From a virus (lineage: Duplodnaviria > Heunggongvirae > Uroviricota > Caudoviricetes), in the IMG/VR virus record IMGVR_UViG_3300025861_000004: DNA of 64,000 nt. One strand, 5' to 3'. The number at the start of each line of letters is the position of its first letter. Position 1 is the stretch's first letter. Positions 61,636 to 61,680 of this stretch are shown here, one piece after another. The translations under genes and the position numbers were made by a program. A model generated the notes under the pieces. The model ran no database searches, was not told the DNA's origin, and saw nothing but the letters and a program-made list of their open reading frames with translations.

Positions 61636-61680
61636 GGCCTCCTGGGATCGGAGCTGATCGTCAGCTCCGATCCCAGGACT
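61636..61680. promoter_or_regulatory. Perfect 17-bp inverted repeat holding back-to-back copies of the 13-nt motif (CCTGGGATCGGAGCTGA tcg TCAGCTCCGATCCCAGG) between divergent genes
   Basis: Read in the sequence. Each motif copy is 24 nt from its own ATG (61620 on the minus strand, 61698 on the plus strand). Confidence 0.8.

Follow-up and report, generated by a model that had tools for sequence, protein, structure and literature searches.

The perfect palindrome between two diverging genes near 61.6 kb raises the question of whether it works as one symmetric unit or as two separate elements, one for each gene. The inverted repeat CCTGGGATCGGAGCTGA-tcg-TCAGCTCCGATCCCAGG occupies positions 61641-61677 of the window, which is the whole 64-kb stretch of DNA analysed here. 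This confirms the perfect 17-bp repeat described in the first-pass annotation, whose span of 61636-61680 also includes flanking bases. When a repeat finder was applied, the perfect arms grew to 18 bp (61640-61657 and 61661-61678) with a spacer of 3 nt. When the window was shuffled five times, perfect inverted repeats with loops of up to 20 nt reached a maximum of 9-11 bp, and the 18-bp palindrome is far above the chance expectation. The stability of the hairpin, as RNA or DNA, was calculated as -41.3 kcal/mol (z = -6.1).

The distance between the arms and the genes was measured with the A of the ATG numbered as +1. The A of the minus-strand ATG is at 61620, and the plus-strand ATG is at 61698. 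The spacing of exactly 24 nt that had been assigned to each arm holds on both sides when counted from the 13-nt core TCAGCTCCGATCC; the 17-bp arms themselves are 20 nt from the ATGs. The first T of the box in either arm is 37 nt upstream of the A of its own ATG. The proposal that each arm serves its own gene is supported; each arm is a box phased at -37 of its own diverging gene. We read the locus, with fairly high confidence, as two independent diverging promoters of sigma-70-family geometry, whose -35-like boxes stand back to back 3 bp apart. With one promoter element for each diverging gene, the site would be a compact bidirectional promoter region.

The box was then compared over the whole window. 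The 8-mer TCAGCTCC is present in 29 copies, whereas 8-mers of equal composition average 3.7. It is frequently lengthened to TCAGCTCCGATCC by the addition of GATCC, and the 12-mer TCAGCTCCGATC has 11 exact copies. All 29 copies run in the same direction as the downstream gene or RNA, and about 25 of them are solitary. The ATG is located exactly at +37 from the first T in 22 copies, at +38 in two, and at +39 in one. Similarly, when the 105 gene starts were examined, the box was found at -37..-30 in about 32. Exact CAGCTC starts at -36 in 28 of the 105 starts, at -37 in 4, and at any other single offset in at most 1. A position matrix returned 22 sites above 12 bits, while the maximum in shuffled sequence was 4.3 bits. 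All but one of these 22 sites end on the ATG of a coding-like ORF, and the remaining site (26733) has an A at +37 followed by a Shine-Dalgarno (SD) leader. In a scan of viral contigs, CATG at +37 was found in none of the 21 matches judged to be chance. With a matrix trained only on relatives, the right arm scores 39.6 bits and the left arm 24.6 bits, and a score above 10 bits is reached by only about 33 of 128,000 windows. The lower score of the left arm is due to its promoter lacking CGAC.

A second conserved element accompanies the box. The aligned copies share a fixed architecture of TCAGCTCC, 17 nt, CGAC, 7 nt ending in C, and ATG. The consensus of 61 distinct sites, pooled from three lineages (the window and two related ones), is TCAGCTCC(gatcc)-N-tCGACt-N6-C-ATG. 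Exact CGAC is present at -12..-9 in 43 of the 61 sites, with T at -13 and -8 and with CGCC, CGAT, and CGTC as variants. Six variable bases separate tCGACt (-13..-8) from the C at -1, which is present in 53 of the 61 sites. Promoters of the sigma-70 family have two elements about 17 bp apart, and the box and CGAC form such a pair with a 17-bp spacer. The start codon is located at the expected +1, with a pyrimidine at -1, a purine at +1, and no SD sequence. The comparison of orthologous promoters further shows 99% identity in the box and 100% in the -10 tetramer, with 62% in the spacer and 53% in the discriminator. A minority of promoters, here called hybrid, join the box to a TANNNT -10; these are the tmRNA promoter, 30371, 22146, and the left arm (61620). 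The window is also rich in plain leaderless starts with a host-type GGGTAnnnT (TANNNT at -12..-7). Judged by these sequence features, the box modules are very probably promoters. Their coordinates are listed in Table 1.

Table 1 Coordinates of the palindromes, the putative promoter modules, and the paired boxes. Positions are those of the window unless another contig is named.
Feature	Position	Strand	Remarks
Right arm	61661..61678	+	-35-like box TCAGCTCC 61661-61668, GATCC extension to 61673; box kept at the orthologous gene in L031 and L033
Left arm	61640..61657	-	TCAGCTCC from 61657 down to 61650; 13-mer down to 61645; absent in L031 and L033
Complete right putative promoter module (-37..-1)	61661..61697	+	Box, 17-bp spacer, CGAC 61686-61689, C at -1; predicted start at A of ATG 61698
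Complete left putative promoter module (-37..-1)	61621..61657	-	-10 region gGTACGAT (TACGAT 61626-61631), not CGAC; predicted start at A of ATG 61620
Left-arm gene	61105..61620	-	171 aa, hydrophobic, no family match
Right-arm gene	61698..62150	+	150 aa, no family match; homologues 77-83% identical in related genomes
Second palindrome, 13-bp perfect inverted repeat on TCAGCTCg	43862..43891	.	Copies face to face; not a scoring promoter pair
Second back-to-back box pair	63563..63589	.	GGAGCTGA 63563-63570 (minus-strand box), 11 nt, TCAGCTCC 63582-63589
Back-to-back pair, 4-nt spacer	L029 13113-13132		Just left of the window
Back-to-back pair, 0-nt spacer	L031 521-536		In a relative
Face-to-face ACAGCTC pair	22163..22183	.	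Each at -37 of its own gene, 22200(+) and 22146(-); 11-bp imperfect palindrome
Putative promoter module, extended box	18609..18645	+	ATG 18646
Putative promoter module	19513..19549	+	ATG 19550
Putative promoter module, 38-nt spacing	25599..25636	+	ATG 25637
Putative promoter module	27501..27537	+	ATG 27538; adjoins upstream stop codon
Putative promoter module	33003..33039	+	ATG 33040; in L065, L066, and L067 orthologues box and CGAC kept, spacer diverged
Putative promoter module	44944..44980	+	ATG 44981
Putative promoter module	49116..49152	-	ATG 49115
Putative promoter module	49493..49529	+	ATG 49530
Putative promoter module	51888..51924	+	ATG 51925
8-mer-box module	3846..3882	+	
Other 8-mer-box modules (starts)	7310(-), 12551, 21746(-), 23531, 34243, 47164, 47685, 50179, 54048, 57452, 57852		
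Leadered variants (starts)	5269, 26733		
One-mismatch boxes (ATGs served)	6453(-), 23925, 24799, 28616, 30371, 45956(-), 62669		
Box and GGGTAGACT -10, no ATG	55974..56010	+	13 nt upstream of tmRNA gene; kept in L031 and L033
Box and CGAT -10, no ATG	44750..44786	+	Precedes conserved structured non-coding region 44787-44943

The output of the modules was examined at the start codons and at two non-coding RNAs. An SD-like sequence is present in 1 of 32 box genes compared with 26 of 73 other genes (Fisher p = 2e-4), and the start codon is ATG in all 32. Copies 26733 and 5269 lack an ATG at +37 and have an A there; AGGAG and, 11-16 nt further on, an ATG follow it, a layout resembling a short conventional leader. 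Copy 55974 points at the tmRNA gene (56024-56383, Rfam 162 bits), and the mature 5' end of the tmRNA is 13 nt downstream of the predicted +1. The box is found ahead of the tmRNA in three lineages, the window and two diverged relatives. Copy 44750 is kept in four lineages, and the non-coding region downstream of it is about 157 nt long, with no match in Rfam. In the consensus fold of this small RNA, an 8-bp closing helix (AGGTCCCG...CGGGACCT) runs from exactly the predicted +1 to a T-tract. This helix carries two compensatory changes in the window copy, and 13 of the 45 pairs of the fold show compensatory change. The position of the box before the tmRNA and the 157-nt RNA favours a role in transcription rather than in translation. 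The geometry and the helix of the one structured RNA also suggest that transcription probably starts at the ATG and yields leaderless mRNA.

The two putative promoters at the palindrome are members of a family with 30 or more compact 37-bp modules across the genome. The RNA polymerase holoenzyme would bind each arm separately, and the DNA would melt at the CGAC box, or at TACGAT in the case of the left arm. Initiation at the A of the start codon would then produce a leaderless mRNA that is translated without an SD sequence.

The relatives were compared to determine whether the two arms belong together. In L031 and L033, the right-hand protein shows 83% and 78% identity, and the right promoter is intact in both. 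The left gene of these relatives has GGGTAGCTT / GGGTAGTGT at -12..-7 as a host-type GGGTAnnnT -10, and no box. These relatives have both genes but neither the left arm nor the hairpin. In the window, the left promoter retains a TANNNT-like -10 (TACGAT) rather than CGAC. The identity between the two arms extends 5 nt (CAGGA) past the conserved 13-mer, a stretch that is variable in all other copies, and this match suggests a recent inverted duplication. Such a duplication of 18 bp is the simplest and most likely history. It would have put a copy of the upstream part of the right promoter before a gene that is driven in the relatives by a host-type promoter with a -10 only. The palindrome is not supported as a functional unit by these comparisons, and its symmetry appears to be an incidental by-product of two adjacent promoters of the same family.

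A second and shorter example had been placed between a minus-strand gene ending at 43845 and the RNase H gene at 43905. A perfect 13-bp palindrome is indeed present there (arms 43862-43874 and 43879-43891, spacer 4 nt); the minus-strand gene starts, rather than ends, at 43845. The arrangement is not the same as at 61.6 kb, as the copies are face to face, degenerate, without a CGAC box, and not conserved. The distances from the boxes to the two ATGs are 38 and 41 nt. The relatives-trained matrix gives these copies -14.8 and -9.6 bits, compared with +39.6 and +24.6 for the arms at 61.6 kb. The palindrome is absent from the same intergenic region in all three relatives L065, L066, and L067, whose RNase H is 60-71% identical. 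In L065 and L067, the RNase H gene is preceded at -36 by an (A)CAGCTC box, which is joined to a GGGTAnnnn -10; a strict TANNNT (TAACCT at -11) is present in L065 alone. In L066, neither the box nor the -10 is in register with the called RNase H start. The minus-strand gene of these relatives has TAGGAn-type -10 boxes. A search of viral contigs for loci related to the RNase H neighbour returned only an unrelated match with 30% identity. The degenerate boxes in the window, together with the layouts of the box and the -10 in the relatives, give the locus the look of a degenerate hybrid promoter that carries an inverted duplication specific to this lineage.

The symmetry at 61.6 kb could also be read in other ways. 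The annotation had proposed a bidirectional promoter bound by a dimeric factor, and the divergent promoter elements are supported while the dimeric reader is not. The palindrome would co-ordinate both genes if a dimeric regulator bound it as a single symmetric site or if it were extruded as a cruciform; the perfect symmetry over 18 bp, the very stable hairpin, and the recurrence of small (A/T)CAGCTC palindromes in other divergent intergenic regions are all in line with this. A symmetric operator, however, has a fixed half-site spacing that recurs and is conserved. The back-to-back pairs found here have spacers of 0, 3, 4, and 11 nt, with face-to-face cases in addition; the pair with 11 nt serves the genes 62982-63533(-) and 63619->(+). 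Most boxes are single, the half-site itself is asymmetric, and the relatives that keep both genes have only the right arm. This reading is very unlikely. It was likewise suggested that the hairpin could act as a terminator or a processing site. In that case it would act on transcripts entering from the flanking genes. The stem is strong, and the upstream plus-strand genes (59532-61108) do aim at it through the antisense of the left gene. An intrinsic terminator has a G+C-rich hairpin and a T-tract, but at this site only the hairpin is present, with no T-tract 3' of the stem and no terminator-like call. The site lies between two diverging gene starts, and both predicted transcripts begin outside the palindrome and head away from it. 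The hairpin is absent in the relatives, and the same sequence is found about 25 times as a single copy that forms no hairpin. Termination or processing is thus extremely improbable, and the reading as two diverging promoters is retained.

Other rivals concern the box itself rather than its symmetry. Stoperators, such as those of phage L5, act by binding repressor and blocking elongation, and no phasing of these sites with the start codon or with a -10 box is known. The box could similarly be an operator for a repressor encoded by the element, with the palindrome as two adjacent repressor sites silencing the divergent gene pair. The stoperators of Cluster A mycobacteriophages are 13-bp asymmetric sites in many copies, located in short intergenic gaps and oriented with transcription (PMC3203893). 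The core of the box is likewise an asymmetric 13-mer, present in dozens of copies within very short intergenic regions and co-oriented with the gene in 29 of 29 cases. Nearby genes encode HTH_3/CI-like regulators and a four-HTH protein specific to the lineage, and the composite element forms no regulon in any bacterial species genome scanned. Unlike stoperators, the box is strictly tied in position to the start codon, which is the predicted +1, and to the second conserved box at 17 bp. The box genes have no other recognisable promoter and no SD sequence, and the predicted starts agree with the tmRNA and small-RNA 5' ends. A purely repressive role is therefore improbable, and a repressor may also bind the -35 box alongside its promoter role. 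The fixed distance to the start codon, before only a subset of genes, could instead mark a translation-initiation signal in the mRNA, like the start-associated sequences (SAS/ESAS) of Cluster K mycobacteriophages. The SAS is a 13-bp asymmetric repeat of unknown mechanism with 11-19 copies in one orientation before some non-structural genes; it is virtually absent from host genomes, and some copies are tied to inverted repeats (PMC3203893). The box resembles it in length, asymmetry, single orientation, and choice of a subset of genes. An SD-like GGAG is part of the SAS, which adjoins the start codon (PMC3203893), whereas the box ends 24-29 nt before the ATG, not 3-8 nt, has no GGAG in its sense strand, and shows no anti-SD complementarity. 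It also precedes two non-coding RNAs, its partner -10 box at a 17-bp spacer is a promoter layout, and the two leadered variants have a normal SD after the predicted start. A translation signal is thus highly improbable compared with the promoter reading.

The promoter family was compared with known promoter systems. The -10 elements of ECF sigma factors include CGAC, CGTC, and CGTA; the ECF factor sigma-X of Bacillus subtilis (group 4) has a CGAC -10, and ECF -35 boxes carry AAC (PMC5758882). The box modules are similar in the short CGAC -10 (variants CGAT and CGTC), in the highly conserved -35 about 17 bp upstream, and in the dedicated regulon. Unlike ECF promoters, the invariant -35 TCAGCTCC(GATCC) has no AAC, the transcripts are predicted to be leaderless, and about one third of the genes of a mobile element are covered rather than a stress regulon. 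For leaderless mRNA, TANNNT located 6-7 nt before the ORF was experimentally shown to be the -10 box (PMC12340547), and such promoters with a -10 box adjacent to the ORF are found in Deinococcus-Thermus and Actinobacteria (PMC12340547, PMC4633059). Similarly, the -10 of the box family ends 6-7 nt before the start codon, with no SD and with the predicted transcription start at the start codon. The difference is that the box class has CGAC instead of TANNNT, plus a required and strongly conserved -35-like box.

Phage systems give further parallels. The middle promoters of T4 join a MotA box to a sigma-70 -10 by sigma appropriation, and the MotA box has its centre at -30, with 12 +/- 1 bp between it and the -10 (PMC2988021). 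Here too a phage-specific box replaces the -35 before dozens of genes, and the hybrid minority has the same layout of a phage box with a host TAnnnT. Most box copies, however, pair with CGAC, and the box ends at -30 with a spacer of 17 bp. The promoter-stem-loop (PeSL) cassettes of T4-type phages are repeated intergenic promoter modules that flank small accessory genes and can mediate recombination and shuffling (PMC2839356, PMC4122927). An inverted duplication of 18 bp, and promoter classes that differ between relatives, fit plasticity of this kind. Unlike PeSL, the box modules have no terminator stem-loop, and the promoters are not of the host sigma-70 early type.

The identity of the reader was considered from the same features. 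An ECF-like -10 combined with a -35 that matches no known consensus points to an alternative sigma factor, or to a box-binding protein in place of sigma region 4, as the most likely reader. There is about an even chance that this reader is encoded by the element itself. An alternative sigma factor of the ECF type falls just short of an even chance, and a box-binding activator is rather unlikely. The promoters that join the box to a TANNNT -10 fit a modular box-binding activator as well as they fit a dedicated sigma. An ECF sigma gene is usually autoregulated and located in the same genome as its cognate promoters. No sigma-factor or RNA-polymerase family was found by Pfam in about 80 kb, which extends 8 kb to either side of the window (the genome is at least 331 kb), by Pfam in 10 large ORFs, in 63 ORFs of the IMG/VR relatives, or among the matches listed (25 of 43 families) for 60 box-driven ORFs. 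Under the control of the box, one DNA-binding family alone recurs, a protein of 226 aa with four tandem HTH units. Its gene follows directly after copy 63582, and a relative has it in duplicate. Its homologues are lineage-restricted. AlphaFold was used to model this protein (mean pLDDT 79), and a Foldseek search of the model against the PDB gave nothing significant (best E = 0.09, TM <= 0.28). This protein is a doubtful candidate for a lineage-specific MotA-like factor that would read TCAGCTCC(GATCC) in place of sigma region 4. If this were true, a huge phage of a leaderless-mRNA host would have its own modular -35 "address", joinable to a -10 of the CGAC type or of the host TANNNT type, and short duplications would move this address between genes, as in the palindrome.

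The window lies within metagenome contigs that reach 331,503 bp in length. Its gene content includes tRNA, tmRNA, DnaJ, NAPRTase, PTH2, RNA ligase, RNase H, NUDIX, and several DNA methylases, with a majority of ORFans. With methylases encoded by the element, a role for methylation of AGCT or GATC inside the box was considered as well; both tetramers are at normal frequency (observed/expected 1.29 and 1.07), and the idea was therefore dropped. Contigs with the same promoters are classed as viral in IMG/VR and carry a family A DNA polymerase, a 1555-aa amidase-bearing protein, a beta-helix protein, and a CCA/poly(A) polymerase. In the parts of the genome that were read, neither a capsid nor a terminase gene was seen, and the description as a huge uncultivated phage with a genome of at least 331 kb is for this reason only probable. 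A scan of 185,579 species genomes returned no regulon of the composite motif, neither bacterial nor prophage. Matches with more than one copy were confined to contigs of this lineage. Two of the six matches (L037 and L039) are real relatives, which seem to have been mis-binned, since their MAGs are labelled Verrucomicrobiota and Syntrophaceae. Five small matches were obtained from a collection of metagenome contigs that lacks this genome. When positions 58-64 kb were compared with deposited phages by megablast, no match was found; tblastn of the SPFH protein gave only distant matches, and the search of 10 box-driven proteins against PHROGs gave none. The pervasive leaderless starts suggest a host like Actinobacteria or Deinococcus-Thermus.

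The palindrome alone is ordinary, with two promoters from one family standing back to back. This family appears to be a new phage-specific promoter class, distinguished by its density, exact phasing, predicted leaderless output, and unusual -35 box. The box provides a sequence-defined regulon map for an uncultivated, probable phage genome of at least 331 kb. Many start-codon calls are corrected by it, such as those at 18646, 25637, and 49530, and exact transcript 5' ends are predicted. The box also reveals a new small RNA and the putative promoter of the phage tmRNA. Close relatives differ in promoter class, which points to switching through tiny duplications. If the reader is found, it would provide a compact orthogonal pair of promoter and factor for high-GC hosts that translate leaderless mRNAs.

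The structured small RNA is a candidate for a new RNA. It is preceded by box copy 44750, a -35-like promoter element that is, from its position, the predicted driver of the RNA. The candidate is conserved across four lineages, its closing helix spans the predicted +1 to a T-tract, and compensatory changes were found in 13 of its 45 pairs. No match was obtained when Rfam was searched with it, even with a cut-off as loose as E <= 1. In the related contig L031, the plus-strand box of a palindrome made of two boxes is followed at +37 by cAGGgtcc, without an ATG, and this motif is similar to the small RNA's own 5' end. 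The plus box may serve another RNA, one that lies antisense to a gene.

The tmRNA promoter in the window consists of a TCAGCTCC box and, as its -10, GGGTAGACT; the related contigs L031 and L033 keep this combination. The tmRNA tag is ANDNSVRLAA in the window and ANDNHVRLAA in the relatives.

The four-HTH protein is a candidate box-binding factor. It is restricted to this phage lineage, with 6 homologues among 5.8 billion proteins, and its gene is itself preceded by a box copy. At the same locus, L031 carries two tandem genes of 227 aa, one encoding a 75%-identical orthologue and the other a more distant relative, also with HTH_3 domains.

At 22163-22183, each of the two facing ACAGCTC boxes lies at exactly -37 of its own gene, and the promoters interdigitate within an intergenic gap of 53 nt. 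The 17-nt gap between the genes with ATGs at 55636(-) and 55654(+), GCGGGTACCTACCCGCG, is palindromic; two GGGTAnnn -10 boxes overlap there on opposite strands, which reads as promoter compaction at its extreme. The longest of all perfect inverted repeats in the window covers the start codon of gene 273-914, and CATG/ATGGGTCGTAACAAC is present in both of its arms.

Coordinates of the features discussed (window positions unless a contig is named)
Feature	Position	Strand	Remark
Perfect inverted repeat	242-287		22-bp arms, 2-nt spacer
Helicase-like gene	12590-15898		1102 aa
Corrected start	18430 to 18646		automatic to promoter-defined ATG
ACAGCTC boxes	22163-22183		face to face; diverging genes 22200(+), 22146(-)
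Corrected start	25577 to 25637		automatic to promoter-defined ATG
DDE transposase, SWIM finger	41165-42487		in 36-43 kb stretch
Candidate small RNA	44787-44943	+	~157 nt; between RNase H gene and gene 44981
Corrected start	49506 to 49530		automatic to promoter-defined ATG
Diverging gene pair	ATGs 55636/55654	-/+	17-nt gap, 55637-55653
tmRNA and promoter	55974-56383	+	element-encoded
Four-HTH protein	63619-64000 and beyond (L001 11922-12602)		226 aa; four tandem units
Perfect palindrome GGAGCTGATCAGCTCC	L031 521-536 (= L065 16486-16501)		16 bp; two boxes, zero spacer

The lower GC of positions 36000-43000, the HTH_3 regulators encoded there and the DDE transposase suggest that this stretch is an insertion. 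The C-terminal half of the helicase-like gene is also low in GC (55%), and one 331-kb assembly breaks at about position 14886.

The same promoter system is used by L037 (JAKQDD010000002.1, 194,784 bp) and L039, two contigs binned into MAGs that carry the labels Verrucomicrobiota and Syntrophaceae. At all three promoter sites that they share, L037 and IMG/VR viral contig 3300009690_000009 match. The placement of both contigs is probably a binning artefact, and their MAG labels are unfit for host inference. Across the window, automatic gene calls often start upstream of the promoter-defined ATG, and the position of the box permits correction of these miscalled gene starts.
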